Assembly (NCBI GenBank): GCA_040756745.1
Contig: JBFLYO010000003.1
Span: forward strand, 15,072 to 79,071
Origin: Bacteroidota bacterium
Lineage (GTDB): Bacteria; Bacteroidota; Ignavibacteria; UBA10030; UBA6906
Length of the DNA stretch: 64,000 nt
Direction of reading: 5' to 3'
The translations under genes and the position numbers were made by a program. Below are positions 5,609 through 60,925 of this stretch, in pieces (positions within the stretch are counted from its first letter, which is position 1; each line of letters opens with the position of its first letter). The notes below the pieces were generated by a model. The model did not search any database. It was not told the DNA's origin and worked only from the letters and a program-made list of their open reading frames with translations.

Positions 5609-5723
5609 TCGTACAGCGCCGGTGGGGTGGTCGGTGCGTCCATGCATCAATATACACCCCCCCGGCAAGGGAAGCAACCTTGCGCGTTGCTTCTCCCGGA
5701 GGTCGTCTGTATATTGATACGCC

Positions 5724-6875
5724 ATGAACTCCGGAGCGGCCGGGCCGCAGCGCATCGCCATCGTGCACGAATGGTTCACCTCCATGCGGGGGGGCGAGAA
5801 GTGCGTCGAGGCGATGTGTGAAGCGTTCCCGCACGCGGATGTGTATGCCCTCCTTCACGTTCCGGGAACAGTCTCATCCGTGATCGAGCGGGCGATCGCA
5901 GGGACGTCGTTCATCCAGCACCTTCCCGCCGCGGCGACCCGATACAGGAACTACCTTCCCCTCTTTCCTCTCGCCGTCCGACGTTTTGATCTCAGCGGCT
6001 ACGATCTCGTCATCAGCTCGAACCACTGTGTTGCCAAAGGAGCGCGCACAGGAAGGAACACACTGCACCTCTGTTACTGCTACACCCCCATGCGGTACAT
6101 CTGGGGACTGTACGACGAATACTTCGGCAAGGGGCGCGCAGGGCTTCTGACGAGGGGTGCGATGCGGGCGTTCGTCGGGCCGCTCCGGCGGTGGGATCTG
6201 GCTACGGCGCGCAATCCTCATCGCTTTGTGGCGATCTCTCACAATGTCCGCCGGCGGATACAGGAGATCTATGGCCGTGACGCGGACGTGATCTACCCTC
6301 CGGTAGACACATCTCGGTTCACGCTCTCGCGCGATGACGATGGCTACTATCTGATCGTGAGTGCTCTCGTGCCGTACAAGGCGGTTGATCTTGCGATCGC
6401 GGCGTTCAATGCTTCGGGGGATCGGTTGGTGATCGTCGGAGAGGGGCCGGATCGCCGCAGACTGGAGGCGCTGGCAGGTCCCACCATTCAGTTTGACGGG
6501 TGGCAATCCGACGACCGGCTGGCCGAATATTATGCCGGCTGTTCCGCTGTGATCTTTCCAGGGGAAGAGGATTTCGGCATCGTGCCGGTGGAGGCGATGG
6601 CGACCGGAAAGCCGGTTCTCGCCTATGCGCGGGGGGGAGCGCTCGAGACCGTGGTGGACCGCCCCGGGCTCCGGGCCGGAGTATTTTTCCATGAGCAGAC
6701 GGTCGCGTCGCTCCTGGAGGGACTTGAAAAGTTGAAGAGGACTGAATTCGATGCTTCGGCGCTGCGGCGGCATGCGCTGACATTCGACCGGGAATTGTAC
6801 AAGTCGCAACTCATGGACTTCTGTCTCAGACGGTGGCGGGAATTCACTTCCGGATCCCTTCAAGCGTATATCTGA
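5724..6875 (+). CDS. glycosyltransferase family 4 (GT-B, EX7E motif)
   Basis: The GEEDFGIVPVEAMATGKPV motif is typical of GT4/group 1 glycosyltransferases. It is divergent from the hydrolase gene. Confidence 0.8.
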   Translation: MNSGAAGPQRIAIVHEWFTSMRGGEKCVEAMCEAFPHADVYALLHVPGTVSSVIERAIAGTSFIQHLPAAATRYRNYLPLFPLAVRRFDLSGYDLVISSNHCVAKGARTGRNTLHLCYCYTPMRYIWGLYDEYFGKGRAGLLTRGAMRAFVGPLRRWDLATARNPHRFVAISHNVRRRIQEIYGRDADVIYPPVDTSRFTLSRDDDGYYLIVSALVPYKAVDLAIAAFNASGDRLVIVGEGPDRRRLEALAGPTIQFDGWQSDDRLAEYYAGCSAVIFPGEEDFGIVPVEAMATGKPVLAYARGGALETVVDRPGLRAGVFFHEQTVASLLEGLEKLKRTEFDASALRRHALTFDRELYKSQLMDFCLRRWREFTSGSLQAYI

Positions 6876-9897: not shown

Positions 9898-10128
9898 ATG
9901 GATCCCAAAGCACTCGGCTACCTGGCAGCAGGCATCGGCGCAGCGTTGACCGTCATCGGCGCGGGCATCGGTATCGGGAAGCTTGCGGCGGCGGCGATGG
10001 AAGCCAGCGGCCGGCAGCCCGAAGTGGCGGGACAGGTCCGCACCTCCATGCTGATTGCCGCGGCGCTGATCGAAGGCGCAACCTTCTTCGCGCTGGCCAT
10101 CTGCATCATCCTTGCCACGAAGTCCTAA
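9898..10128 (+). CDS. atpE: F0F1 ATP synthase subunit c
   Basis: 76 aa hairpin proteolipid with the AIGIGxLG and conserved Glu (LIEGATFFALA) motifs. There is a strong RBS GGAGG. Confidence 0.95.
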   Translation: MDPKALGYLAAGIGAALTVIGAGIGIGKLAAAAMEASGRQPEVAGQVRTSMLIAAALIEGATFFALAICIILATKS

Positions 10129-10143
10129 CGCCGGAGAAGCGGC

Positions 10144-10638
10144 ATGCTGGACATCAATCCGGGTCTGATACTCTGGACCATCATTACCTTTCTCATCGTC
10201 CTGGTGGTGCTCCGCGCGGTGGCGTGGAAGCCCCTGCTGGGCGCGCTGACGGCGCGCGAGGAATCGATCCGCACGGCGCTCCGGAAGGCAGAGGAGGCGC
10301 AGGCCGAGGCGCAGCGGATGCTGGAGGAACAGCGCCGGCACCTGGCGCAGGCGGAGGAACGCTCACAGCGGCTGATGAAAGAGGGACGCGATATGGGAGA
10401 GCGGCTGAAGTCTGAGATCCTGGAGAAGGCCTCGTCGTCGTCGCGGCACATGATCGACCAGGCAAGGGACGAGATCCGCCGAGAGAAGGAAGCCGCGCTC
10501 CAGGAGCTGCGCGAGGAGGTAAGCGATCTCGCCGTTGCCGCGGCGGGGAAAATCCTGGACGCCAACCTGGACACGCCGAAACAGCGTGCGCTTGCCGAAG
10601 CGGCGATCAGGGAAATCACAGGGAAGAAGGCCAGATGA
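10144..10638 (+). CDS. atpF: F0F1 ATP synthase subunit b
   Basis: N-terminal TM helix followed by a long charged coiled coil. Its position in the atp operon fits. Confidence 0.85.
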   Translation: MLDINPGLILWTIITFLIVLVVLRAVAWKPLLGALTAREESIRTALRKAEEAQAEAQRMLEEQRRHLAQAEERSQRLMKEGRDMGERLKSEILEKASSSSRHMIDQARDEIRREKEAALQELREEVSDLAVAAAGKILDANLDTPKQRALAEAAIREITGKKAR

Positions 10639-25430: not shown

Positions 25431-25617
25431 CGTTGTAAACACAGGAAGGGCGCTGTGCTCTTAAATGAACGGTCGGTCGATAGGTGTCCAAAAATATGCA
25501 CATGGGAGAGCGCAACTCCTTCTCCCTCCTCTATTTTCAGGGCATTCTGATGGCACCCTTCTTGCAAACAAATTGGATACACCCACCGGACGGTCTCTCA
25601 ATGGAGGAGAGAACGAT

Positions 25618-26481
25618 ATGAACGCCAGATATGCAGCGATAGTCCTTGTTGCGATGGGAGCCCTCGGCGCCATCGCGCTCACAGGTTGTTACACTCAGTT
25701 CGGCACTCTTACCGAAGACAAGGAGCCCGGGGTCACGTCAGAGCCGGAGGAGTACGGGGAAGGAGTGACAGACGAAGAGTATGCCGAGGCACGGCAGCGG
25801 TTTTACTATGATTCGTATTATCCTGCTATCGATGTCGGGTTCTCGTTTGGGTGGGGCTATCCCTGGTACGGCTACCATCGTCCATGGTACGGCTACGGAT
25901 TTGGCTCCCCCTGGTATGGATACGGGTATCCCTGGTATTACGACCCGTTCTATTATGGCAATTACTATGGAGTCTATTCTCCATGGTACGTCGGGCCCTT
26001 CTACCGCGGCGGCTATTATTCTGATAGGGCACCGAGTGTGAACACGACCCGGAGGATCGGATCGACGAGGACGCTCGGCGGGACGCGCGGTTCCACGGAT
26101 TATCGGGGGACCTCCACCGAGTTCGCTCCGCTTCCGACGGGGAAGAGATCGAGTGGCACGGTGACCACGGGCTCATCCGCGCCGACGTCGGGCGGTCGGT
26201 CAGGGGTGAACACGGGCCGCAGGGGGACGGCGGGGGAGCGGCGGGATGGATCGCAGGGGCGCACGGTCAGCACTCCCCCAAAGGGAGGTTCGCGTGAGCA
26301 AGCGGCTCCTGCACCTTCTTCCGATACGCGACGAGGAAGTTCGGGTGGAAGCAGGACGCCGTCGTACACTCCACCACCTTCTTCTCCTCCTCCCTCAAGC
26401 GCTCCTTCTTCGGGGGGCAGCCGTGGCGGTGAAAGTCGCGGCGGAAGCGGTGGAGGCAACAGGGGCGGCGGCCGGCGGTAA
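25618..26481 (+). CDS. lipoprotein with Tyr/Trp/Gly-rich aromatic repeat block (PWYGY-type) and Ser/Gly/Arg/Pro-rich disordered tail
   Basis: RBS GGAGG before the ATG at 25618 and lipobox LTGC. The aromatic block is GWGYPWYGYHRPWYGYGFGSPWYGYGYPWYYDPFYYGNYYGVYSPWYVGPFY. The C-terminus is RGG/SGG-rich. Confidence 0.55.
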   Translation: MNARYAAIVLVAMGALGAIALTGCYTQFGTLTEDKEPGVTSEPEEYGEGVTDEEYAEARQRFYYDSYYPAIDVGFSFGWGYPWYGYHRPWYGYGFGSPWYGYGYPWYYDPFYYGNYYGVYSPWYVGPFYRGGYYSDRAPSVNTTRRIGSTRTLGGTRGSTDYRGTSTEFAPLPTGKRSSGTVTTGSSAPTSGGRSGVNTGRRGTAGERRDGSQGRTVSTPPKGGSREQAAPAPSSDTRRGSSGGSRTPSYTPPPSSPPPSSAPSSGGSRGGESRGGSGGGNRGGGRR

Positions 26482-38847: not shown

Positions 38848-38950
38848 AGGCGGAGTGCGGATTGCGGAACGGAAGTTCAGATGTGCGATTTGTGATTTCG
38901 GATGTGCCTTTACTTCATTCCGCAATCCGCGCTCCGCAATCCGCAATATA
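38848..38950. repeat. Family 2 palindromic element (GGCGGAGTGCGGATTGCGGAACGGAAG ... CATTCCGCAATCCGCGCTCCGCAATCCGCAATA) between the hybrid kinase start and the hup stop
   Basis: Imperfect inverted repeat about 100 bp long built from TGCGGATTGCGGA/TCCGCAATCCGCA units. Related copies are at 48455-48482 and 56692-56782. Confidence 0.7.
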
Positions 38951-48380: not shown

Positions 48381-48482
48381 CGCGCGCTAGAGCCCAATAT
48401 ACCACGTCAAGCTACGAAAAACATGTCTGACTTGCAACCGACGCCGGCCGACAGTTCCGCAATTCGCATTCCGCAATCCGCA

Positions 48483-49040
48483 TTATTTTCTCGTCCTGCT
48501 CTTCGACAGCTTGACATCGATCTCCTTCATGCGCTTCAGCTCCTGCTGTACCTGCTGCAGGTCGGCTTCAAGATCCTGCAGGCGCCGCATGTCGGTCATG
48601 ATGGTGCCGCTCTGCCTCTTGGCGAGAGTCGTCAGGCTGTCGACCGAAGCGGTCTTCCGGGCAAGACTCTCCTGCAGCGTCCTCACCCGGCGAAGGAGGG
48701 AGACGAACATCTGGAAATGCTCACGGTCCGCTTTCTTCATCGGGAGATTGAGACACGCCGTGAACCAGTAGAGGGCGAGACTGTCGTTTCGCGCCGGGTT
48801 GAACTCGCTCGCATAGAGCAGGGCAGCCTTCCGCGCGGCAACCGGGAAGGCCGTTGATTGCGGAAATTCTGTCGCCACCACGACATAATGCTCGGCCGCA
48901 CCCTTGAGCGCCATCTCCTGCTCAAGGCTGTCGGCGAGCCGCATGTGATAGTTGACCAGATTCGCCGTCCGGCTTCCTTCGGTCCCCCCGCAGCCGGCAA
49001 GAACGCTCACGAGCAGCACGCCTGCGATCCATCGGTTCAT
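48483..49040 (-). CDS. lipoprotein with coiled-coil C-terminus, function unknown
   Basis: Signal peptide with lipobox LAGC. The first gene... (see finding) it is the last gene of a minus-strand operon. Confidence 0.55.
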   Translation of the reverse strand: MNRWIAGVLLVSVLAGCGGTEGSRTANLVNYHMRLADSLEQEMALKGAAEHYVVVATEFPQSTAFPVAARKAALLYASEFNPARNDSLALYWFTACLNLPMKKADREHFQMFVSLLRRVRTLQESLARKTASVDSLTTLAKRQSGTIMTDMRRLQDLEADLQQVQQELKRMKEIDVKLSKSRTRK

Positions 49041-51574: not shown

Positions 51575-51847
51575 TCAGCGCGGGGACCGTGCGGACCGGG
51601 CAACCTCATCTTCGATGAACCCCCGTACGGCGGGCTTCAGGTAGAGGTTGTCAAGGCCGATTTCGTTCAGCGCTGTGGCGAGAACGGCCGCCTTCCGCTG
51701 AGGCAGAAGTCTCCTGTTGATGAGCAGCAGTTTCTGTTCCTTGAGAATGCAATACCCCCCTTCAAAATCCCCCCGCTCATAGCGGATGGTGACGCCGAGC
51801 TGACGGGCGACGCCGCCCAGCTCCACGATGAGCTCTTCGTGCTTCAT
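51575..51847 (-). CDS. small hypothetical protein (90 aa)
   Basis: ORF with tight spacing in the minus-strand operon; its start overlaps the upstream stop. No family recognised. Confidence 0.4.
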   Translation of the reverse strand: MKHEELIVELGGVARQLGVTIRYERGDFEGGYCILKEQKLLLINRRLLPQRKAAVLATALNEIGLDNLYLKPAVRGFIEDEVARSARSPR

Positions 51848-52371
51848 GCCTTCGCTTGTGCAGGTCGGACAAAGGGGCGGAACACTGCAAGCGCGATGAT
51901 CGTGTAGTAGCAGAGCAGGGCGATCACCGGCGCGCCGGCGAGCGCGGCCAAACGGGCGATGAAGAGTTCGCGGAACACCTCATTCCCAGCGGTGGTAAAA
52001 AATTCCATGTACACCATCTCAGCGTCCAGATACATCGTGAACAGTTCCACAGGGACAAACGCATAGAACAGGATCGCGCTCATCATGAGCCAGCCGTTCT
52101 CCTTGAGGCGGAGGGGGGTCGTTACCAGGAACAGCGTCGCGCTGACGAGGACGACCGCATAGCTGATCATGATGATGACGGAGGCGAACGACATCAGACG
52201 GAAGATCTCCCGTTCTGCTTCAGGGGCGAGGTATTCCTCGAACTCGAGCGTCCCCGTCTTGAGCATGTCGTCCCCGATCATGGCACGGATGTTCACCCCC
52301 CCCAGCCACACGATAGCGCCGACGATCATGATGAAGAGGGCCGCCCGGGAGAGACGAGGGGACGGTGTCAT
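51844..52371 (-). CDS. hypothetical polytopic membrane protein
   Basis: Four to five hydrophobic helices. The start was chosen at MTPSPRLSRAALFIMIV (52371); the track ORF extends to 52422. Confidence 0.5.
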   Translation of the reverse strand: MTPSPRLSRAALFIMIVGAIVWLGGVNIRAMIGDDMLKTGTLEFEEYLAPEAEREIFRLMSFASVIIMISYAVVLVSATLFLVTTPLRLKENGWLMMSAILFYAFVPVELFTMYLDAEMVYMEFFTTAGNEVFRELFIARLAALAGAPVIALLCYYTIIALAVFRPFVRPAQAKA

Positions 52372-52802
52372 GTGCTCTCCGCGCGGGTCCTGCCGGCGTC
52401 GATCAGCCAGTTCTTGTACCACGCAAGGTCATGGCAAAGCGCCAGGAGACTCTCCACGCCCCCATGTGTCATGACGAGGTACGTCCGTTCGAAGCGCTCG
52501 CGCGCGTCAGCCGGAGCGTCCTTGAGCATTCCTGTGATCAGCGCCACAGCGTGATCGAGACTCCGGGCAAACTCGGATGCCAACCGGTCGTACCCTTCTC
52601 CGTTAGGGCCGATCCGGTTCATGATCCCGTACGCGCGGTGGAGGAACTTGGATTGAAAGCAAAGCTCCTCCAGCGTCTGCCGCCGCGCCGGGGCACGGCC
52701 GAGGTCCAACAGCATCCCCAGATCGTCACGCCTCCCGAGTGTGCCGCCTGACAAGACGTCCAACTCTGACAGCAACGATTCCGTAGCCGGGGAGAATTGC
52801 AT
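52368..52802 (-). CDS. hypothetical helical protein (first gene of the minus-strand acpS operon)
   Basis: 144-aa ORF. Its stop overlaps the start of the downstream membrane protein gene. Confidence 0.4.
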   Translation of the reverse strand: MQFSPATESLLSELDVLSGGTLGRRDDLGMLLDLGRAPARRQTLEELCFQSKFLHRAYGIMNRIGPNGEGYDRLASEFARSLDHAVALITGMLKDAPADARERFERTYLVMTHGGVESLLALCHDLAWYKNWLIDAGRTRAEST

Positions 52803-52967
52803 GATGTAATATAGAGAATAGGGGAAGGAGTTTCAAACACGCGGTGGAACTTCGCTGCGTACAAGCCGCTTTACAGTGCGGGGACGTCCCCTGACCCCGT
52901 TTTGATTCTGAGGACTCAAAACACTACTTTAGCCAGGCAGAACGGAACCAGTGGACAGGAGTCGGGC

Positions 52968-54527
52968 GTGCGCCTCACCAGGAAAATCCTCATTGCGATC
53001 GTCCCCGTCTTTCTCATCTTCATCACCGTCAGCGTCGTGCTCCAGAATCAGTTCCAGGAACGGGAAATGATGGAAGAGGCACAGGTTGCAGCACACACCT
53101 ACGCCGACATCGTCAAAGAATCGCTCGTCAGCATGATGCTGAAGAACTACGAGGTGGACAGCAGCTTCATCGACCGCGTGAATATGTTGAAGCAGATTGA
53201 TACGCTTCGCGTGTTCGTCAATAATCTGAGAATCCGTGATGAGCTGCTGACTCCGGAACGGTACCTGCGCCTGCAACTGAAGTATGCGACCCTTCGCCCG
53301 AAAGACATGATAGAGAAGCGGGTGCTGGAAGGCGGCGAGCCCTTCTTCGAGCGGGAAGGAGAGTACTTCAGGGGCGTGATTCCCTTCACGGCCACGTCGG
53401 TCTGCCAGAAATGCCACGCCGTCCCGGTCGGGTACGCGCTGGGTGCGGCGGACATCCGGATCTCGTTTGCGCGGGTGTCGGCGGCCACGGCTCAGAACTG
53501 GAGCCGGTCGCTGATCATCTTTGTGGTCTTCGCGGCTGTCGTGATCGGCGTCGCGGTGATGATGTTCCGGATCTTCGTTTCCAAGCCCGTGCGCGGCCTG
53601 GTCGGCGCTACGTTTCAGATCAGCCGGGGGAACCTCGACACCCCGGTACCGGGGGCGGAGGTGCTTCGTCCCGGCGAAGACGAGCTTGCCGTGCTGTCCC
53701 TCCGATTCGATGAAATGAGAATCTCCCTCAAGGAAAAGATCGACCAGCTTGACCACGCCAACCGGTCGCTCTCCGACCGAAATACCGAGCTCGAAAGAGC
53801 TCTGGACCGCCTCCGCAAGGCGCAGGAGGATCTCGTCCGCAGCGAGCGTCTTGCCGTGACAGGGAAGCTGACCGCACAACTTTCACACGAGATCAACAAT
53901 CCGATCCACAATATCCAGAGTCTCCTGGAGTCCGCCCTGCGCAAGGTGAACGGCAACGTCGCCCTCCGGGAACTCATCGGCGTCGCTCTTGAAGAAGTGT
54001 CCCGGATGGCAAAGCTGACCCGCCAGATGCTCGATTTCTACCGGGGGTCAGTGGTCGAACACGAGCAGGATGAAGTGGATCTCCGGAGTCTTCTTGTGGA
54101 AACCGCGCGCAGCTACACGCCCCAGCTCGAACAGGCGGGGATCACGGTGGTCCTCGAAGCGAACGAGCCGGTTCCCCCCGTGCGTGGGTCGCGCGACAAG
54201 CTGAAGCAGGTGCTGATCAATCTCGTGATCAATGCGCGCGACGCCATGGACTCTGGCGGGATGCTGGCCCTGCGCTGCCGGGCAAACCGTGGGAGCGTCT
54301 GCGTCGAGGTTGCGGACACCGGCGTGGGGATTCCGGAAGAGAACATGGGGCGGATCTTCGAGGCGTTTTTCACCACCAAGAAGGAAGTGAGTGGCGTGGG
54401 TCTGGGACTAGCCGTCAGCTATGGCATCGTCCAGGCGCACCAGGGCACCATCGCCGTCCGCAGCACAATCGGGAAAGGGACGACGTTCATTATCGAACTC
54501 CCGGCATCGGCCGACGTCCATGTCTGA
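52968..54527 (+). CDS. sensor histidine kinase with periplasmic CxxCH heme-binding PAS-like (Tll0287/DUF3365-like) sensor domain
   Basis: TM helix, then a sensor region carrying VCQKCHAVPVGYALGAADI (CxxCH), a second TM, HAMP, H-box LSHEINNPIHNI and G-boxes DTGVGIPEEN and GVGLGLAVSYG. The start was chosen at the GTG at 52968 (RBS AGGAG). The track begins at the TTG at 52902. Confidence 0.8.
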   Translation: MRLTRKILIAIVPVFLIFITVSVVLQNQFQEREMMEEAQVAAHTYADIVKESLVSMMLKNYEVDSSFIDRVNMLKQIDTLRVFVNNLRIRDELLTPERYLRLQLKYATLRPKDMIEKRVLEGGEPFFEREGEYFRGVIPFTATSVCQKCHAVPVGYALGAADIRISFARVSAATAQNWSRSLIIFVVFAAVVIGVAVMMFRIFVSKPVRGLVGATFQISRGNLDTPVPGAEVLRPGEDELAVLSLRFDEMRISLKEKIDQLDHANRSLSDRNTELERALDRLRKAQEDLVRSERLAVTGKLTAQLSHEINNPIHNIQSLLESALRKVNGNVALRELIGVALEEVSRMAKLTRQMLDFYRGSVVEHEQDEVDLRSLLVETARSYTPQLEQAGITVVLEANEPVPPVRGSRDKLKQVLINLVINARDAMDSGGMLALRCRANRGSVCVEVADTGVGIPEENMGRIFEAFFTTKKEVSGVGLGLAVSYGIVQAHQGTIAVRSTIGKGTTFIIELPASADVHV

Positions 54528-55920
54528 TCAGGCATCCATCCTCGTGGTCGACGACGACAAGGCCTTCCGCGTCGCCACCAAAACTCTGCTGGAAGATGAA
54601 GGATTTGTCGTAGCGACTGCTGCAAGCGGCGACGAAGCGCTGACGAAGATGGAGACAGAGCAGTTCGATCTGGTGCTCTCTGATATGGTAATGGGAAAGA
54701 TGAGCGGCGTGGAACTGCTTGCCAACGTCAAAGCGAAGCGCCCCGACCTCCCCGTCATCATGGTCACCGGCTTCGGCTCCATTCAGACGGCGGTGGAGGC
54801 GATGCGGCTTGGTGCGTCGGATTACCTGACGAAACCATCCAACAACGACGAGCTGCTCATCAAGATCCGCCGCGCCCTGGAGATGCAGGACAAGGAGCGT
54901 CAGCTCCGCTCGCTTCGTGAGGAGCTGCAGGGGACCTACAGCTTCGGCAACATGGTGAGCCGCAGCCCGGTAATGCAGGAAGTGATACGTCAGGTGCAGC
55001 AGGTGGCCGACACCGACGTGACGATCCTCATCCAGGGGGAAAGCGGGACAGGCAAGGAGCTCGTCGCGCGCGCGCTCCACTTTAACAGCAAACGCTCCCT
55101 GAAACCGTTCGTCGTCGTCAACTGCTCGGCGATCCCCGAAAATCTGCTGGAGAGCGAACTCTTTGGGTATGAGCGCGGCGCCTTCACGGGAGCGACCCGC
55201 CAGCGGGCAGGAAAGTTCGAAGAAGCGAACAACGGTACACTCTTCCTGGATGAGATCGGGGACATCTCACCCGCCGTTCAGACCAAGCTGCTCCGGGCCC
55301 TTCAGGATAAAACCTTTGAGCGGGTCGGCGGAACGGGATCCATCAGCGTGAACACCCGCGTCGTTGCTGCAACCAACCGGAACCTTGATGTGATGGTCCG
55401 TCAGGGGGACTTCCGCGAGGATCTGTTCTATCGCCTCAATGTCTTCCCGATTGTACTTCCTCCGCTGCGCGAACGACTTGAAGACATCCCGCTCCTGACG
55501 GAACATTTCCTGCACCGCCATGCGGACCTGGCAGGAGGGACGGTGAAGTCAGTGGCCACCGCCGTGATCAGCGACATGATGAACTATACGTGGCGGGGGA
55601 ACATCCGCGAACTGGAGAATCTGATCAAACGCGCCATCATCAAGACCCCCGGCGAGGTGATCACGTCGCTCGAACTTCCCAACGTCGAGCCCGCCGCGCC
55701 GTCATCCGGGGAGCCCGCCGAGGGCGTCAACCTGAACACTCCGTATAAAGACTACATCGGCAGCATCATCCGCCATGCCGAGGAGCGGTACCTGGTCCGC
55801 ATGCTCCGCCTCTGCAAGGGGAACATCAACCAGGTGGCGAAGCTGATGGACGTAGACCGGAAGACCATTTATCGCAAGATGTCCGACTATTCGATCGATC
55901 CGGCCTCGTTCCGCGAATGA
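54520..55920 (+). CDS. sigma-54-dependent response regulator (NtrC family: REC, AAA+ with GAFTGA, Fis-type HTH)
   Basis: Receiver (ILVVDDD...DLVLSDMVM), Walker A GESGTGKE, GAFTGA, ESELFGYERGAFTGA and a C-terminal HTH. The ATG at 54520 overlaps the kinase stop by 8 nt. Confidence 0.9.
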   Translation: MSDQASILVVDDDKAFRVATKTLLEDEGFVVATAASGDEALTKMETEQFDLVLSDMVMGKMSGVELLANVKAKRPDLPVIMVTGFGSIQTAVEAMRLGASDYLTKPSNNDELLIKIRRALEMQDKERQLRSLREELQGTYSFGNMVSRSPVMQEVIRQVQQVADTDVTILIQGESGTGKELVARALHFNSKRSLKPFVVVNCSAIPENLLESELFGYERGAFTGATRQRAGKFEEANNGTLFLDEIGDISPAVQTKLLRALQDKTFERVGGTGSISVNTRVVAATNRNLDVMVRQGDFREDLFYRLNVFPIVLPPLRERLEDIPLLTEHFLHRHADLAGGTVKSVATAVISDMMNYTWRGNIRELENLIKRAIIKTPGEVITSLELPNVEPAAPSSGEPAEGVNLNTPYKDYIGSIIRHAEERYLVRMLRLCKGNINQVAKLMDVDRKTIYRKMSDYSIDPASFRE

Positions 55921-56061
55921 TCCCGCGTGTGGCATCACCGCCACACTACCGCTCGCCAGCGAGTTCCCTCCTGTGGTTTTGCTGCCCCACTCCCCGGTCG
56001 ACCTCGGTTGAATCGCCGCAAAAACCCCCCTCCCCGACTTCACCGATTGGTTTTCCTCCCT

Positions 56062-56077
56062 TGGCACAGTGGTTGAC
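56062..56077 (+). promoter_or_regulatory. candidate sigma-54 (-24/-12) promoter element TGGCACAGTGGTTGAC upstream of the ECF sigma gene
   Basis: TGGCAC-N5-TTGA compared with the consensus TGGCAC-N5-TTGCW. The GG to -12 spacing is correct but the -12 dinucleotide is GA rather than GC. It lies 53 nt upstream of the ATG at 56130 and directly downstream of the sigma-54 activator gene. Confidence 0.4.
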
Positions 56078-56129
56078 CCTGTTGATCCTACCAAACGACC
56101 ACGACGGCATACATACAGGGGGAACGGCC

Positions 56130-56690
56130 ATGATGACGACACGGTTCGAGCGGGAAGCCCTGACGCAGCTACCGGCGCTCCGTCACTACGCAGAGTCGCT
56201 GACGAAGGACCGGCAGCGATCTGACGACCTGGTGCAGGAAACGATGTTGAAAGCCCTCCGCTATTTCGACACGTACAGGGAGGGGACGAACTGCAGGGCG
56301 TGGCTGTTCCAGATATGCAAACACTCGTTCATCAACGAGTACCGTCGAAAGGAATACGAGCCGATCCTCGTCGATTTCCAGTCGGAGGCCGGCGGCGGAG
56401 ATGATGCGGGGGAATGGCATGGCGTGCACCCTTCGCTCAACGATGCCTCCGCGCAGCAGGATGACGGCGCGATGCTTGGAGACGAGGTGACCTCGGCGCT
56501 GCGAGGTCTCCCCCACGACTACCAGACCGTGCTGCTCCTGAACGACATCGAGGGATACACGTACGACGAGATTGCGGCGTTCATGCAGGTGCCCGTCGGC
56601 ACGATTCGCTCCCGTATCCACCGTGCCCGCAAGATGCTCGCGGCGAGGCTGGAGCGCTATGCTGAAGAGCTGGGATACAGACAGAACTAG
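56130..56690 (+). CDS. RNA polymerase sigma factor, ECF (sigma-70 group 4) family
   Basis: Region 2 (LVQETMLKALRYFDTYREGTNCRAWLFQICKHSFINEYRR) and region 4 (LLLNDIEGYTYDEIAAFMQVPVGTIRSRIHRAR). The start was chosen at MMTTRFE with RBS GGGGGAA. The track ORF extends upstream with no domain content. Confidence 0.85.
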   Translation: MMTTRFEREALTQLPALRHYAESLTKDRQRSDDLVQETMLKALRYFDTYREGTNCRAWLFQICKHSFINEYRRKEYEPILVDFQSEAGGGDDAGEWHGVHPSLNDASAQQDDGAMLGDEVTSALRGLPHDYQTVLLLNDIEGYTYDEIAAFMQVPVGTIRSRIHRARKMLAARLERYAEELGYRQN

Positions 56691-56691
56691 G

Positions 56692-56782
56692 GTGAAGCAC
56701 ATTCAATTCGGATTGCGGATTGCGAAGTGCGGAATATTCCGCAATCCACACTCCGCAATCCGCAATGCTGAGATTGCTTCAC
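56692..56782. repeat. Family 2 palindromic element between the ECF sigma stop and the cyc2-like gene start
   Basis: Outer arms GTGAAGCA...TGCTTCAC. Inner imperfect palindrome CGGATTGCGGATTGCGAAGTGCGGAATATTCCGCAATCCACACTCCGCAATCCG. Confidence 0.75.
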
Positions 56783-56850
56783 ACCGATGGCCTGAGTATA
56801 TTGCCCCGTTTCCTGTTCTTTTCCCGCAGACAGCTCACAAGGAGCGCATC

Positions 56851-57948
56851 ATGATGATCCGCCGGCCGATTATGCTCGTCCTTCTTGCGGCATCTGTGGC
56901 GTTCACCGCAGAAGCGCTGCCCCGGTTCTCCTCCCGCACCGGTTTCAAGTGTCAGTCCTGCCACGTCAACCCGTCAGGCGGGGCAATGCGCCTTGCCAAC
57001 GGGGTCCAGTACGGCAGGGAACAGCTTCCCGTTCCCGAGTGGTCAAAGGAGTTCGAAGTCGAAGACTTCTCCAACGTCATCACGAACATCCTGGGAGTGG
57101 GAGCGGACGTTCGGACCCTTTTTTTCTATCAGCGCCTGACCGACACAACGACGCTGAACGGTTTCTGGCAGATGCAGGGAGACATCTACCTGAATTTTCG
57201 AATCGCGAGAAAGATCAGCTTCTTCCTCAAGAAGGGACTGCGGGACGGGTTTGAAGCGTACGGACTCTTCTCCGTCCTCCCAGCGACGGGATACGTGAAG
57301 GTGGGGAAATTCCTCCCGAACTACGGACTCAGAATCGACGACCATACGACATACATCCGGCAGGTTACCGGCATGAGCCCTGAACGCGGCCGCGTGGAAC
57401 GGACCGGGTTGGAACTCGCCATATCCCCGGGTCCGCTCACGTTCAGCGGAGGGATGTACAATGCGGAAGAGGGGAACTTCCCAACGTCGTCAAGCAAGAA
57501 GGCCATTCTGGGACGCGCTGAAGGACTGTTCAACCTGGGCGAAGAGCTCTTCCTTGGGCTGGGAGGCAATGTGTTCATCAGGGAAGTGCAGGGAGTGAGG
57601 TCGACGTACTATGGCGGATTCGGCTCGTTCAGCGTGGGGCGGCTTACGGTATTTGGTGAAGCTGACCTGGTGAGGAACAAGACCCCTGGTGGGACGACGG
57701 TGAAGGAGCTGGTAACGTATGTGGAGGGGGACATGATGATCACCCAGGGGCTCGATCTGAAGCTCGCATTCGATTTCCACGATCTCGACCTGGATCTCAA
57801 GTCGGGAACAAAATCGCGTTACAGCGTCGGGTTTGAATTCTTCCCCGTGGGCGGCGTGGAGGTCCGACCGGTGTACCGGATTGTCAGGGAGAACCCGAGC
57901 GTGGGCAACAGGGACGAGTTTCATCTGCTTCTGCACTTGTATCTCTGA
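56851..57948 (+). CDS. outer-membrane beta-barrel protein with N-terminal CxxCH heme motif. Candidate Cyc2-like fused monoheme cytochrome-porin
   Basis: Strong RBS AAGGAG and a signal peptide MMIRRPIMLVLLAASVAFTAEA. CQSCH (KCQSCHVNPSGG) lies within 15 residues of the predicted mature N-terminus. It is followed by about 330 residues of alternating Gly/aromatic beta-strand-like sequence. The ORF track start at 56572 overlaps the sigma gene and was rejected. Confidence 0.5.
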   Translation: MMIRRPIMLVLLAASVAFTAEALPRFSSRTGFKCQSCHVNPSGGAMRLANGVQYGREQLPVPEWSKEFEVEDFSNVITNILGVGADVRTLFFYQRLTDTTTLNGFWQMQGDIYLNFRIARKISFFLKKGLRDGFEAYGLFSVLPATGYVKVGKFLPNYGLRIDDHTTYIRQVTGMSPERGRVERTGLELAISPGPLTFSGGMYNAEEGNFPTSSSKKAILGRAEGLFNLGEELFLGLGGNVFIREVQGVRSTYYGGFGSFSVGRLTVFGEADLVRNKTPGGTTVKELVTYVEGDMMITQGLDLKLAFDFHDLDLDLKSGTKSRYSVGFEFFPVGGVEVRPVYRIVRENPSVGNRDEFHLLLHLYL

Positions 57949-57954
57949 ACGAAC

Positions 57955-58407
57955 ATGGAGAAGCGCGTGTCTCTGCGTCTGGCGATCTCGATAATTCTTG
58001 TCGCGGCGCCGGTGTGCTCATTCGCTCAGAGCAAGAGTCGGGGTTTGATGAATCAAACCCCGACTCTGACGAAACCCGGAAAGACGATTTCGTTCAGGCA
58101 GGATGTGTTTCCGATCATCAGCAAGAACTGCCTTCCGTGCCACGCAGAGGACAACTTCAATCCGAGCGAGCTATCCCTTGATTCCTATGAGCTCTTGATG
58201 GAAGGAGGGAAGCATGGCCCGCCTGTTGTCGCGGGGAACGCGAAGGAGAGTCTCATCGTGAGGAAGACCGGGCTCAATCCGCCGTTTGGGGACCGGATGC
58301 CATTGAACTCCAAGCAGAAGATCGAATCGGGAAATGCCAAATGGCTCACGGAGGCGGAACTGAAGATCATCGCAGAATGGGTGGAGCAAGGGGCGAAGGA
58401 TAATTAG
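57955..58407 (+). CDS. small secreted monoheme c-type cytochrome with PSCyt1-like (planctomycete cytochrome c) heme-binding domain
   Basis: Signal peptide (…CSFAQS). DVFPIISKNCLPCHAED...LMEGGKHGPPVVAGNAKESLIVRK matches the PSCyt1 pattern around its CxxCH. Confidence 0.65.
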   Translation: MEKRVSLRLAISIILVAAPVCSFAQSKSRGLMNQTPTLTKPGKTISFRQDVFPIISKNCLPCHAEDNFNPSELSLDSYELLMEGGKHGPPVVAGNAKESLIVRKTGLNPPFGDRMPLNSKQKIESGNAKWLTEAELKIIAEWVEQGAKDN

Positions 58408-58417
58408 AAATGAGAGA

Positions 58418-58506
58418 TTCAGTCGGGGCTGAATATATTCAGCCCCGACTGAATCAGAAGTTGTCAATTGTCATTGCGGGGCCGGTGTGGGAGCACACCG
58501 GCCCCC
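58418..58506. terminator. two consecutive perfect hairpins after the cytochrome c gene (probable bidirectional terminator)
   Basis: The first is GATTCAGTCGGGGCTGAATAT/ATATTCAGCCCCGACTGAATC, a 19-bp perfect palindrome. The second is GGGGCCGGTGTG-GGAG-CACACCGGCCCC, followed by a T-rich tract. Confidence 0.6.
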
Positions 58507-58585
58507 TCGCTTATATCCTCTGATTTGATTCTCAAACGGAATCTCGCGATATTGTTTACATAATCTGCCTTTCATTTTTCTGCGC

Positions 58586-60925
58586 ATGCTTGAAGAGAAA
58601 CCCGGCATCAATCCGGGCCGGTTCTTCCGAAAGGAATGGATCGCTCCCGGCGTTCTTGTGAAGGTCGGCATTGGTCTGTCACTGACCACAGTGCTTGTGC
58701 TTCTGTTTCCACGCGGCGAGTCTATTGAGCTTGAATATCGCGTGGGAGCAGTCTGGGCGCAAAAAGACCTGATCGCTCCCTTTTCCTTCCCCATATTCCG
58801 TGACGAGCGTGAATATGCGCGTGATGTCGAAGAGGCCAGGAAGCGGGTGTTCAACGTCTTTGAGCGGGACACAGCCGGGAGCGAGATGCAGGTCGCGCAA
58901 CTCGACAGCTTCTTCGCGCGGCTCGAGGAGACGCTCGCGGCGCGGGCGCACCAGCGCAGGAACATGCGCAAAGGGGGGGGATCCGCATCAGAAGATTCCT
59001 CAAGGTTCAGCCGGCTTGCCTCCGCCCTTGACATTCCCTTCTCCGACAAGGAGTGGGATGCCCTCTCCTCGCTTGTCTCCTCGGGCCGTCTCCGTCAGAT
59101 GGGGCGGGTGCTGAGCAATCTTGCCCGTAGGTATCTTCACGTCGGGATCATCGACAGGCCGAAGAATGCACTCGGACGGCCCGACATCGCAATCCGCAAG
59201 GGTACGGTCGAGGAAATTCTTCCCGCGGCGCGCCTGCTCGACAACAACGACCTTCACGCGCTCCTGGAGAAGGAGCTCTCGGAGAGGTTCCCCGGCGACC
59301 ATGAGGCTGTCGGGATGGCCTACAAGATCGGCGTGATGCACATCAAGCCAAACGTGAAATTCAGTGCGGCGGCAACGGACCAGGCCCTTGCCGCAGCCGC
59401 CGACGCCGTGCCCCGGACTCTCGGCTTCGTTCAGGAGAACGAGCGGATCGTCAGCAAGCATGAGCGCATTACACAGGAAACCAGGCTGAAGCTGGAATCG
59501 CTGCGCCGTGCCCGCGCCGAACGGGGACCGGAGTCGGACCGACCGACACAATTCCTCGGGACGATCCTCCATGTGTCGATCGTGTTGGTCCTGTACGGCC
59601 TCTATTTGTTCCTCTTCCGGAAGGGGATCTTTGGCAGCAATCGGAAACTGGCACTCATCGCCGTCATTTTCGTGATGGAAGGAGCGTTTGCGTACCTGAC
59701 CCGCGAAGCCGACGTGAACGCCCCGCTTGAATTCCTCATCCTCGTGCCGGTGGCGTCGATGCTCCTCACCATCATCTTCGACTCCCGCGTTGGCTTTTAC
59801 GGCACAGTGATCATCTCGTACCTCGTGGCGGGGATCCGCGGGAACGACTATTCGGTCGCCCTCGCGTCGCTTGTTGCAGGTGCGATGGCGGTCTACACGG
59901 TCCGGGACATGAAAAACCGGACGCAGATCTTCCGGTCACTCGGCTTCATCTTCCTCGGGTATGGGATATCCATCACGGCGCTGGGGCTGGAGCGGTTCGA
60001 GTCCACGCCTATCGTCGTGGAACAACTGGCGTACGGACTGCTGAATGCGGTGATCTCCCCCGTGATGACCTACGGACTGCTGATCTTCCTGGAGAAGAGC
60101 TTCCGCGTGACGACCGACCTCGCCCTCATGGAGCTGGCGCATTTCAACCATCCGCTGCTCCGCCAGCTCTCAGAGCAGGCGCCTGGCACGTATCATCACA
60201 GCATGACGATGGCGACGCTTGCAGAAGCCGCCGCGGCGGCCGTGGGTGCGAACGAGGTGCTCGCCCGCGTGGGGGCCTATTTCCATGATGTCGGCAAGAT
60301 CGTGAAGCCGACCTATTTCGTGGAGAACCAGAAGACCTCCCGCAGCAGGCATGACAAGCTGTCGCCGCGCATGAGCTCCCTCATCATCGGCGCGCACGTC
60401 AAGGACGGGATTGCGCTGGCGCAAGAGCACCACCTTCCCGAGGAAGTGATCGAGTTCATCCCGATGCACCACGGCACCACACGGATGGACTACTTCTACA
60501 ACAAAGCGCTCGAACTGGCGCGGAACGATCCGGATGAAACCAAGATCGATGAGATCAAGGAGCAGGACTACCGCTACCCGGGCCCCAAGCCGCAGACAAA
60601 GGAGACGGGTATCATGATGCTGGCCGACGCGGTGGAGGCAGCGGTGCGGACGATCGACGACCCCACGCCCCAGCGCCTCGAGCAAGCAATCGACGAGCTC
60701 ATCAAGCTCCGGTTTGAAGAAGGGGAACTGGACGAATGTCCCCTGACGCTGAAGGACCTGACGCGCATTAAATCGGCCTTCCTTGGCGTCCTCGTCGGGA
60801 TTTACCACTCGCGGGTCAAATATCCCGACACGGCGCGCAGAAAGACACGCAAGACCACCACGCCGCCCGCCGAGCCCGCGGCGGAACGGAACACGAACAT
60901 CATCAGGGAGATCGATCGGCAATGA
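58586..60925 (+). CDS. PgpH-like 7TM receptor with intracellular HD phosphohydrolase domain (7TMR-HDED + HD/HDIG)
   Basis: Extracytoplasmic N-domain, 7 TM helices, then HD domain motifs (HSMTMATLAEAAA...GAYFHDVGK...HH). Confidence 0.8.
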   Translation: MLEEKPGINPGRFFRKEWIAPGVLVKVGIGLSLTTVLVLLFPRGESIELEYRVGAVWAQKDLIAPFSFPIFRDEREYARDVEEARKRVFNVFERDTAGSEMQVAQLDSFFARLEETLAARAHQRRNMRKGGGSASEDSSRFSRLASALDIPFSDKEWDALSSLVSSGRLRQMGRVLSNLARRYLHVGIIDRPKNALGRPDIAIRKGTVEEILPAARLLDNNDLHALLEKELSERFPGDHEAVGMAYKIGVMHIKPNVKFSAAATDQALAAAADAVPRTLGFVQENERIVSKHERITQETRLKLESLRRARAERGPESDRPTQFLGTILHVSIVLVLYGLYLFLFRKGIFGSNRKLALIAVIFVMEGAFAYLTREADVNAPLEFLILVPVASMLLTIIFDSRVGFYGTVIISYLVAGIRGNDYSVALASLVAGAMAVYTVRDMKNRTQIFRSLGFIFLGYGISITALGLERFESTPIVVEQLAYGLLNAVISPVMTYGLLIFLEKSFRVTTDLALMELAHFNHPLLRQLSEQAPGTYHHSMTMATLAEAAAAAVGANEVLARVGAYFHDVGKIVKPTYFVENQKTSRSRHDKLSPRMSSLIIGAHVKDGIALAQEHHLPEEVIEFIPMHHGTTRMDYFYNKALELARNDPDETKIDEIKEQDYRYPGPKPQTKETGIMMLADAVEAAVRTIDDPTPQRLEQAIDELIKLRFEEGELDECPLTLKDLTRIKSAFLGVLVGIYHSRVKYPDTARRKTRKTTTPPAEPAAERNTNIIREIDRQ

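Follow-up and report, generated by a model that had tools for sequence, protein, structure and literature searches.

A divergent relative of Cyc2 cytochrome-porins encoded with a PSCyt1 cytochrome next to putative heme-kinase, sigma-54 activator and ECF sigma genes

A five-gene locus with three heme c motifs

We analyzed a 64-kb stretch of DNA (the window; G+C content ~60%) from contig JBFLYO010000003.1 of a Bacteroidota bacterium of the class Ignavibacteria, in which an earlier note had singled out five co-directional genes bounded by a divergent promoter region (52803-52967) and by two perfect hairpins. The coordinates of the five same-strand genes, of their boundaries and of the three CxxCH motifs that they contain were confirmed (Table 1). 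From upstream to downstream, the genes encode a sensor histidine kinase, a response regulator, an extracytoplasmic function (ECF) sigma factor, a fused monoheme cytochrome-porin (hereafter, the barrel protein) and a small secreted cytochrome of the PSCyt1 type. Among the open reading frames (ORFs) of at least 150 amino acids (aa) in the window, only the kinase, the barrel protein and the PSCyt1 cytochrome carry a CxxCH motif, and all three of these heme c proteins fall within one 5.5-kb block.

The two proteins at the downstream end are predicted to act outside the cytoplasm. Read from its sequence, the barrel protein starts with MMIRRPIMLVLLAASVAFTAEA and, past an A-x-A cleavage site (…AFTAEA/LPRF), continues as LPRF…; it is predicted to be an outer-membrane protein with an N-terminal signal peptide. 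The adjoining cytochrome matches PF07635 at 29.2 bits (cut-off 22), as expected from its description as a PSCyt1 monoheme protein, and weakly resembles the hydrazine synthase alpha heme domain. In its orthologues (n=5), CxPCH and GDRMP are invariant and PPFGDRMPLN is conserved; the unchanged CxPCH and PPFGDRMPLN suggest His/Met ligation of the heme.

The three upstream genes encode signalling and transcription proteins. The kinase is composed of a transmembrane segment, a periplasmic Cache/PAS-like domain of ~150 aa, a second transmembrane segment, and HAMP, HisKA and HATPase_c domains. Its periplasmic part had been described as a heme PAS domain of the Tll0287/DUF3365 kind, which agrees with its Cache/PAS fold, its conserved CxxCH and the rank of Tll0287 as the third-best structural match, but the corresponding Pfam family, PF11845, matches it below threshold (12.7 bits vs a gathering score of 24.1; E 0.18). 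Of 12 relatives of the sensor, 5 are matched by PF11845 at E<=1 (best 0.014), and CQ[KR]CH is kept in all intact homologues, of which only 11 close ones were found. The sensor is, in our view, divergently related to the Tll0287/sCache_heme family. DUF3365/Tll0287 has been reclassified, in a 2026 preprint, among the heme-bearing Cache domains, and those fused to signalling modules are reported there to behave like sensors of nitric oxide (NO) rather than of O2 (PMC12889525). The regulator had been called sigma-54-dependent, and it is a complete activator of the NtrC type, with a REC domain (Pfam Response_reg, E 3.8e-33), an AAA+ domain (Sigma54_activat, E 2.5e-73) carrying the GAFTGA loop at 55177, and an HTH_8 domain (E 3.9e-7). 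The ECF sigma factor consists of the sigma-2 and sigma-4 regions only (Pfam Sigma70_r2 and Sigma70_r4_2; TIGR02937 at 82.7 bits vs a cut-off of 42.9).

Table 1. Features of the locus (positions in the 64-kb window)
Feature	Position	Strand	Remark
Sigma-70-like promoter TTGAAA-17-TATATT of divergent 144-aa gene	52808..52836	-	10/12 matches; block kept in L006 and L007
ECF-type promoter GGAACTT-N16-CTTTA	52846..52873	+	ends 95 nt before kinase start codon
Sensor histidine kinase	52968-54527	+	GTG start; matches called starts in L006 and L007
CQKCH of kinase periplasmic domain	53403-53417	+	
NtrC-type sigma-54-dependent response regulator (REC, AAA+, HTH_8)	54520-55920	+	start overlaps kinase stop codon
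Palindrome 1, TGTGGC-N6-GCCACA	55928..55945	+	exact; kept in L006 and L007; recognisable before ECF gene of L004
Palindrome 2, TGTGGT-N6-GCCCCA	55972..55989	+	2 mismatches to consensus; 44 bp from palindrome 1
Candidate sigma-54 (-24/-12) promoter element TGGCAC-N5-TTGA	56062..56076	+	ends 54 nt before ECF start codon
ECF (group 4) sigma factor, 186 aa	56130-56690	+	no adjacent anti-sigma gene
REP-like imperfect hairpin (32+32 nt) of ATTGCGG heptamers	56704..56767		between ECF and barrel genes
Sigma-70-like promoter TTGCTT-N17-TATATT of barrel-PSCyt1 operon	56774..56802	+	
Fused monoheme cytochrome-porin (barrel protein), 365 aa	56851-57948	+	
Signal peptide of barrel protein	56851-56916	+	
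CQSCH of barrel protein, residues 34-38	56950-56964	+	
Secreted PSCyt1-type monoheme cytochrome c, 150 aa	57955-58407	+	starts 6 nt past barrel gene
CLPCH of PSCyt1	58129-58143	+	
Perfect 40-nt palindrome (20+20 nt), downstream boundary	58416-58455		T-run on minus strand only
Perfect hairpin, 12-bp GC-rich stem, 4-nt loop	58478-58505		

The cytochrome-porin and its relation to Cyc2

The earlier note had likened the fourth gene product to Cyc2 because of a single CQSCH at the mature N-terminus, followed by a beta-barrel-like remainder, and both of these properties were borne out. In the AlphaFold2 model, the barrel begins at about residue 81, has 16 strands and matches 16-strand porins with an OprP-like fold. 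When 37 relatives were aligned, C34, C37 and H38 did not vary (37/37); they lie within the conserved LPRF-x-x-RTG-x-K-CQSCH-VNPSGG, and exactly one CxxCH is found in 119 of the 120 closest homologues, the exception being a sequence that lacks its N-terminus. Across the broad family (n=117), CxxCH is present in 117/117 members, and C34, C37, H38, G43 and R47 are 100% conserved. The possibility that an ordinary porin carries CxxCH by chance was rejected, given this invariance and the alignment of the heme module with that of Cyc2 (see below). M46 of GGxMR, conserved in only 52% of the family (61/117), is an unlikely axial heme ligand.

The family is large and has gone without a name. A homology search with the barrel protein yielded 391 relatives, those with a named source all being a "hypothetical protein" from metagenome-assembled genomes (MAGs) of Ignavibacteria or Bacteroidota, and in these 391 relatives no Pfam domain was found except a faint OMP_b-brl. 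The barrel protein itself had no match in Pfam or NCBIfam, which is uninformative, as NCBIfam also misses canonical Cyc2; no useful match was obtained when the PDB was searched by sequence, using either the barrel profile or the kinase sensor. An exhaustive profile search of 1.84 billion representatives recovered 1,985 clusters at E<=1e-3, 843 at E<=1e-10 and 280 at E<=1e-30 (clusters counted at 50% identity). A second profile search again gave only "hypothetical protein", with Ignavibacteria, Bacteroidota and Zixibacteria as the named sources; one Proteobacteria label came from another look-up.

Cyc2 proteins are defined by a signal peptide, one CxxCH, an upstream AxPxFAR[Q/K][T/Y] motif, a PxL motif 4 residues downstream and a 16-strand porin, and are filtered for a length of at least 365 aa in FeGenie (PMC8406198). 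A canonical set was obtained by scanning the back-translated motif against one genome per GTDB species, which gave 120 loci, including those from MAGs of Sideroxydans, Gallionella, Zetaproteobacteria, Nitrospira defluvii, Chlorobiaceae and Ignavibacteriales; 86 full-length proteins were extracted from these loci for the comparisons. All motif matches were equal in length, which fixes the spacing at [T/Y]-x3-CxxCH, and the barrel protein of the window has the same spacing (T-G-F-K-C). It is exactly 365 aa long and thus lies on the length boundary. The signature of its own family, read from 149 representatives, is A-[LV]-P-R-[FY]-[AS]-x-[RQ]-[TY]-G-x-x-CxxCH-V-N-P-x-G-G-G-M-R-N, in which the P, F/Y, A/S and T/Y positions of the Cyc2 motif are kept together with the 3-residue spacing to the first cysteine.

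Profile comparisons connect the two families in both directions. A hidden Markov model (HMM) of canonical Cyc2 matched 116 of the 117 members of the window family at up to 65 bits (the window protein itself at 25.4 bits; E 4.7e-4 for a nominal database of 1e6), and, conversely, the HMM of the window family matched 86/86 canonical proteins. Aligned with hhalign, the families gave a probability of 99.5% (E 3.5e-23) over 339 columns. The barrels alone (97.4%, E 1e-11, 242 columns) and the heme modules alone (97.8%, E 9e-13) were matched as well, and a control with reversed columns scored 0.2%, so that similarity through generic beta-barrel composition can be rejected. Because the whole proteins and the split modules agree and the control is negative, the barrel protein is very probably homologous to Cyc2 over both modules.

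Two loci, from Ignavibacteriales and Bacteroidetes MAGs, encode Cyc2 proteins with the canonical motif (PSFARQT…CSSCH; L067, 5259-7060, and L047, 4105-5964), so that the phylum holds both canonical and divergent Cyc2 clades. In each of these loci, the cyc2 gene adjoins a gene for a small class-I monoheme cytochrome c; the PSCyt1 and class-I partners are analogous, not homologous. Genes of the FeGenie category of iron oxidation have been reported in MAGs of Ignavibacteriales and Zixibacteria, with Cyc2 cluster 3 dominant at most sites (PMC8478452); these could be members of the window clade or canonical genes such as that of L067.

Gene neighborhood and regulatory DNA

We compared the locus with eight places from the close, Ignavibacteria-type clade, namely, the fetched loci L001-L007 and the P0012 contig. 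In 7 of the 8 (L002-L007 and the P0012 contig), the PSCyt1 gene comes next after the barrel gene or is separated from it by one extra ORF. The full five-gene set was found only in the two closest relatives examined, L006 and L007, with barrel proteins 72% and 67% identical to that of the window, respectively. The P0012 contig (58%) has the ECF, barrel and PSCyt1 genes, whereas L004 and L005 (56%) additionally have a gene for a protein with a type IX secretion system (T9SS) tail between the ECF and barrel genes and a gene for a 239-aa protein between the barrel and PSCyt1 genes. L002 and L003 (57%) carry only the barrel and PSCyt1 genes, in the same chromosomal slot as in the window, and in L001 (58%), the barrel gene stands alone after a cation-efflux gene. 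Thus, 5 of the 8 places (56-72% barrel identity), like the window, have a co-oriented ECF gene upstream of the barrel gene; the ECF orthologues of L006, L007 and L004 are 53-73% identical to that of the window, and the gap between the ECF and barrel genes narrows to 82 nt in L007. As judged from gene order, the conserved core is the barrel-PSCyt1 pair, to which the regulators were apparently added stepwise. The five genes had been proposed to form a closed unit that would be co-conserved in relatives. The proposal holds for the barrel-PSCyt1 core and, in some lineages, for the ECF gene, but the kinase and regulator are found only in the closest relatives, where alone the set is complete.

The slot itself is conserved, with genes for proteins of 144, ~175 and 90 aa, HAD, ACPS and another kinase upstream, and genes for 7TMR-HDED, XerD and an aminotransferase downstream. 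The 144-, ~175- and 90-aa genes, which have no Pfam match in the window (51575-52802, minus strand; the middle product is hydrophobic), invariably adjoin the barrel slot, in divergent orientation, in the window, L002, L006 and L007.

Several additional ORFs accompany members of the barrel family. In L006, a 144-aa ORF (10064-10498) overlaps the 3' end of the barrel gene and precedes that of PSCyt1; it has no Pfam match and no counterpart in the window. The 239-aa protein of L004 (9126-9845) is lipoprotein-like and also lacks a Pfam match; its C-terminus resembles PSCyt1 and has CVNEGCH (CX4CH) in place of CxxCH. A possible extracellular redox partner is encoded directly upstream of a distant family member in L128 (5123-5992); this 289-aa protein has CVEGCH (CX3CH) and a T9SS sorting tail.

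Several promoter-like elements were identified in the intergenic regions. The upstream boundary of the module is marked by the sigma-70-like promoter of the divergent 144-aa gene. Facing the kinase gene is GGAACTT-N16-CTTTA, the sole exact match in the window, with one match each at the same position in L006 and L007 and none in L001-L005. It resembles classical ECF promoters, such as that of Escherichia coli sigma-E (GGAACTT-N16-TCAAA), and we infer that it may be read by the neighboring ECF sigma factor, which would create positive feedback. In the kinase 5' leader, the 10-mer CTTTGATTCT (52900-52909) is invariant in the window, L006 and L007, with variable surroundings.

The ECF gene is preceded by TGGCAC-N5-TTGA, as the earlier note had stated. 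The window, L006 and L007 share TGGCAC and GTTGA without change in a spacer that averages 72% identity; all three have GA instead of GC at the -12 element, and L004 has the canonical TGGCAC-N5-TTGC. Two conserved palindromes lie 73-134 bp upstream of the element and are candidate binding sites of the response regulator. Counterparts of the second palindrome are TGTGG-N8-CCACA at the aligned position in L006 and TGTGGC-N6-GCTACA in L004. Sigma-54 control of the ECF gene is likely, since the element and the palindromes are conserved in L006 and L007 and are kept even in L004, which has no adjacent kinase or regulator. The number of matches to the element in the window, taken alone, is not above chance. 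A second exact TGGCAC-N5-TTGC lies within an ORF (25465-26481) at 25551-25565 and is probably fortuitous. In L004, the element and the two TGTGGC-N6 palindromes lie at 5700-5850; either they are relics or the gene for their activator must lie at another place in the L004 genome.

The barrel-PSCyt1 pair has a sigma-70-like promoter of its own. Because this promoter is sigma-70-like and is present also where there is no ECF gene, direct control of the barrel gene by the ECF sigma factor is not supported. Accordingly, of the two layers of alternative-sigma control proposed for the locus, the sigma-54 element before the ECF gene is conserved in three relatives, but a separate sigma-70-like promoter serves the barrel gene. 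The hairpin that precedes the barrel promoter was considered as a locus-specific operator or attenuator and rejected, as ATTGCGG/CCGCAAT heptamer hairpins occur at three intergenic sites (also 38854-38947 and 48458-48484, with a single copy at 59188-59200) and are absent from the L006 and L007 spacers; the window has 14 heptamer matches vs 2.5 expected by chance. No RNA family was found in an Rfam scan of 52000-59000, and neither of the hairpins downstream of the PSCyt1 gene is followed by a T-run on the plus strand.

Possible function, alternatives and known systems

Taken together, these data lead us to favor, at a probability of roughly 0.55, the interpretation that the barrel and PSCyt1 genes encode a Cyc2-type monoheme pore and its electron-carrying partner, with Fe(II) as the best guess for the substrate, overlaid by a cascade of heme kinase, NtrC-type activator, sigma-54 and ECF sigma factor. 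Cleavage of the signal peptide would expose LPRF…, a single c-type heme would be attached at CQSCH, and the rest of the protein would form the 16-strand barrel. The protein would exchange single electrons between soluble species, extracellular or accessible from the pore, and the periplasm, where the co-transcribed PSCyt1, a reasonably probable redox partner, would carry the electron onward. The three-gene cascade would have been inserted directly upstream of the pair in the lineage of the window. The periplasmic Cache domain of the kinase, with a covalently bound heme, would respond to the redox state or to a ligand of the heme, for instance NO, and the kinase would phosphorylate the activator. 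Bound to the two TGTGGC-N6-GCCACA palindromes, the activator would open the ECF gene's sigma-54 promoter. Read-through from this promoter could also raise the expression of the barrel and PSCyt1 genes, and the ECF-type promoter before the kinase gene would close a positive feedback loop. The chances that the cascade affects barrel expression are about even, and Fe(II) oxidation as the specific function of the barrel protein is a tentative proposal, somewhat short of even odds.

Several observations weigh against this interpretation, some of which bear on the chemistry of the pore and others on its regulation. As to the former, Fe(II) oxidase activity has been demonstrated only for canonical Cyc2 proteins (PMC8406198), and the window family departs from these. 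The strict PxFAR[QK][TY] motif is found in 0 of 149 family representatives (the window protein has ALPRFSSRT), and PxL is missing 4 residues past CxxCH, where the window protein reads CQSCH-VNPSGGAMR and the family CxxCH-VNPxGGGMR. Since these two defining motifs are lacking, the protein is best filed, from its sequence, as a member of the Cyc2 superfamily in an outlying clade, outside Cyc2 as currently defined; what stands of the earlier Cyc2-type assignment is homology, the single heme motif and the barrel, but not the two signatures. In an all-against-all BLAST comparison at >=50 bits, the window family (117 members) and the canonical set (86 proteins) fall into two clean components; without one sequence, the canonical set stays connected up to 60 bits. 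Likewise, HMMs of two canonical subgroups, FARQT (with Sideroxydans and Gallionella) and FARKY (with Acidobacteria, Gemmatimonadota and Nitrospira), gave median scores of 63-77 bits against each other and 14-26 bits against the window family. Function may therefore have diverged, as the window family is farther from canonical Cyc2 than the canonical subgroups are from each other. The heme domain (residues 18-77) is modeled with low confidence (pLDDT <50), and none of the candidate distal heme ligands is fully conserved (H362 95%, M108 89%, H165 89%; n=117). Finally, distant family members (L128, L129) have unrelated neighbors and no PSCyt1 gene.

Under the strongest alternative, the pair passes electrons across the outer membrane without oxidizing Fe(II): it might reduce extracellular acceptors such as Fe(III) chelates or humic quinones, or might detoxify or respond to NO or nitrosative stress; in the NO variant, NO would be the signal of the heme-Cache kinase, and the barrel-PSCyt1 pair would belong to a stress regulon induced by the cascade. 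The distance of the clade from the validated Fe(II) oxidases and its own signature, CxxCH-VNPxGGGMR, are compatible with such a role, as are the NO-sensor properties of signalling-fused heme-Cache domains (PMC12889525), the PSCyt1 partner in place of the class-I cytochrome c found beside canonical Cyc2 in related phyla, and the reported occurrence of Cyc2 homologues in Ignavibacteriaceae and other taxa that reduce Fe(III) or have no known extracellular electron transfer (PMC6344600; PMC8478452). On the other hand, a single heme in a 16-strand pore has been argued to suit dissolved Fe2+ (PMC8406198), the locus contains no gene related to nitrogen oxides or quinones, and the similarity of the sensor to the Tll0287 family is sub-threshold. 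We consider this alternative unlikely, although it is the most serious of those weighed.

The observations that concern regulation relate to a second and somewhat weaker alternative, whereby the five genes are not one unit and an old, constitutive barrel-PSCyt1 pair lies next to a separate regulatory module that controls unlinked targets. Kinase, regulator and ECF genes are missing from L002 and L003, where the pair sits between the same flanking genes as in the window, with those of 144, 173 and 90 aa, HAD and ACPS on the upstream side and 7TMR-HDED and XerD on the downstream side, as well as from L001 with its solitary barrel gene. The sigma-70-like barrel promoter is present not only in the window, L006, L007 and L004 but also in regulator-less L002, and it resembles the housekeeping-type promoter of the divergent 144-aa gene. 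The only ECF-type promoter at the locus faces the kinase rather than the barrel gene, the REP-like hairpin between the ECF and barrel genes of the window could block read-through, and no rpoN gene is visible in the window. Such a separation is at odds with the recurrent position and orientation of the ECF gene upstream of the barrel gene in the close clade, with the short gap in L007, which makes read-through plausible, and with the clustering of all three heme c proteins of the window; moreover, a heme-based periplasmic sensor makes functional sense beside periplasmic and outer-membrane cytochromes. We consider the separation of the two modules improbable.

A more speculative extension of the Cyc2-type interpretation, to which we assign a similarly low likelihood, is that the VNPxGGGMR porins form a large, unrecognized sister family of Cyc2 in Ignavibacteria, Zixibacteria and other phyla that serves not lithotrophic iron oxidation but as a signal-induced redox valve of the outer membrane. 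In the lineage of the window, the heme-Cache kinase would read NO or the periplasmic redox state and, via sigma-54, the ECF sigma factor and positive feedback, would turn the cell to a state of extracellular electron transfer or nitrosative stress. If this were true, the regulatory circuit would be the first to be defined for a Cyc2-type protein of any neutrophile. To our knowledge, no regulator of Cyc2 genes is known in neutrophiles.

These findings matter because Cyc2 is the main marker from which microbial iron oxidation is inferred in genomes and metagenomes, and the window clade (843 clusters at E<=1e-10) would escape the motif screen behind the reference Cyc2 tree. If the clade oxidizes Fe(II) or moves electrons in another way, surveys of soil, sediment and the subsurface undercount or misassign this capacity in Ignavibacteria-type heterotrophs. 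The occurrence of Cyc2 homologues in Ignavibacteria-type MAGs (PMC6344600; PMC8478452) and the cytochrome-porin architecture were already known. What is new is a large clade that lacks the published Cyc2 signature and is labeled "hypothetical protein" in every named match, its fixed pairing with a PSCyt1 cytochrome within the close Ignavibacteria-type relatives, and, adjoining a Cyc2-type gene, a regulatory circuit that is concrete and has comparative support. The locus thus offers a compact, testable hypothesis of how such a gene may be controlled, in which a heme sensor would act through a sigma-54 activator on an ECF sigma factor.

Among known systems, the closest is Cyc2 itself, as represented by Acidithiobacillus ferrooxidans Cyc2, Mariprofundus Cyc2PV-1 and Leptospirillum Cyt572 (Keffer et al. 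2021, PMC8406198). The window protein shares with it the signal peptide, a conserved motif at the mature N-terminus, one CxxCH with the [TY]-x3-C spacing, a 16-strand OprP-like barrel, profile homology in both modules and an adjoining gene for a small monoheme cytochrome. It differs in the family motif, PRF[AS]xR[TY] instead of PxFAR[QK][TY], in having VNPxGGGMR instead of xxxxPxL after CxxCH, in its length of 365 aa compared with the typical 400-480, and in its partner, PSCyt1 rather than a class-I cytochrome c. The kinase sensor resembles sCache_heme/DUF3365/Tll0287 (PF11845) domains in its extracytoplasmic Cache fold, the insertion of CxxCH before the last strand and the fusion to a signalling module, whereas its similarity to PF11845 is sub-threshold and heme binding is putative. 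With MtrCAB, MtoAB/PioAB and Geobacter OmbB-OmaB-OmcB, the barrel-PSCyt1 pair would have in common an outer-membrane beta-barrel that passes electrons between the periplasm and the outside.

Parallels for the regulatory genes are found in two other systems. In the rus operon of A. ferrooxidans, a cyc2-type gene is under the control of a redox-responsive two-component system, RegBA; however, RegA is not a sigma-54 activator, there is no ECF layer, and RegB senses the redox state via cysteine and quinone, not via a periplasmic heme c. The earlier note had taken the arrangement to be new, but as a design, it has a precedent in the Hrp regulons of Erwinia (HrpX/HrpY-HrpS-HrpL) and Pseudomonas syringae (HrpR/S-HrpL), in which a two-component system acts through a sigma-54 activator on an ECF sigma factor without an adjacent anti-sigma gene. 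In the window, by contrast, the response regulator is itself the sigma-54 activator and the kinase has a putative heme c sensor, whereas the Hrp cascades belong to a different phylum and have type III secretion as their output.

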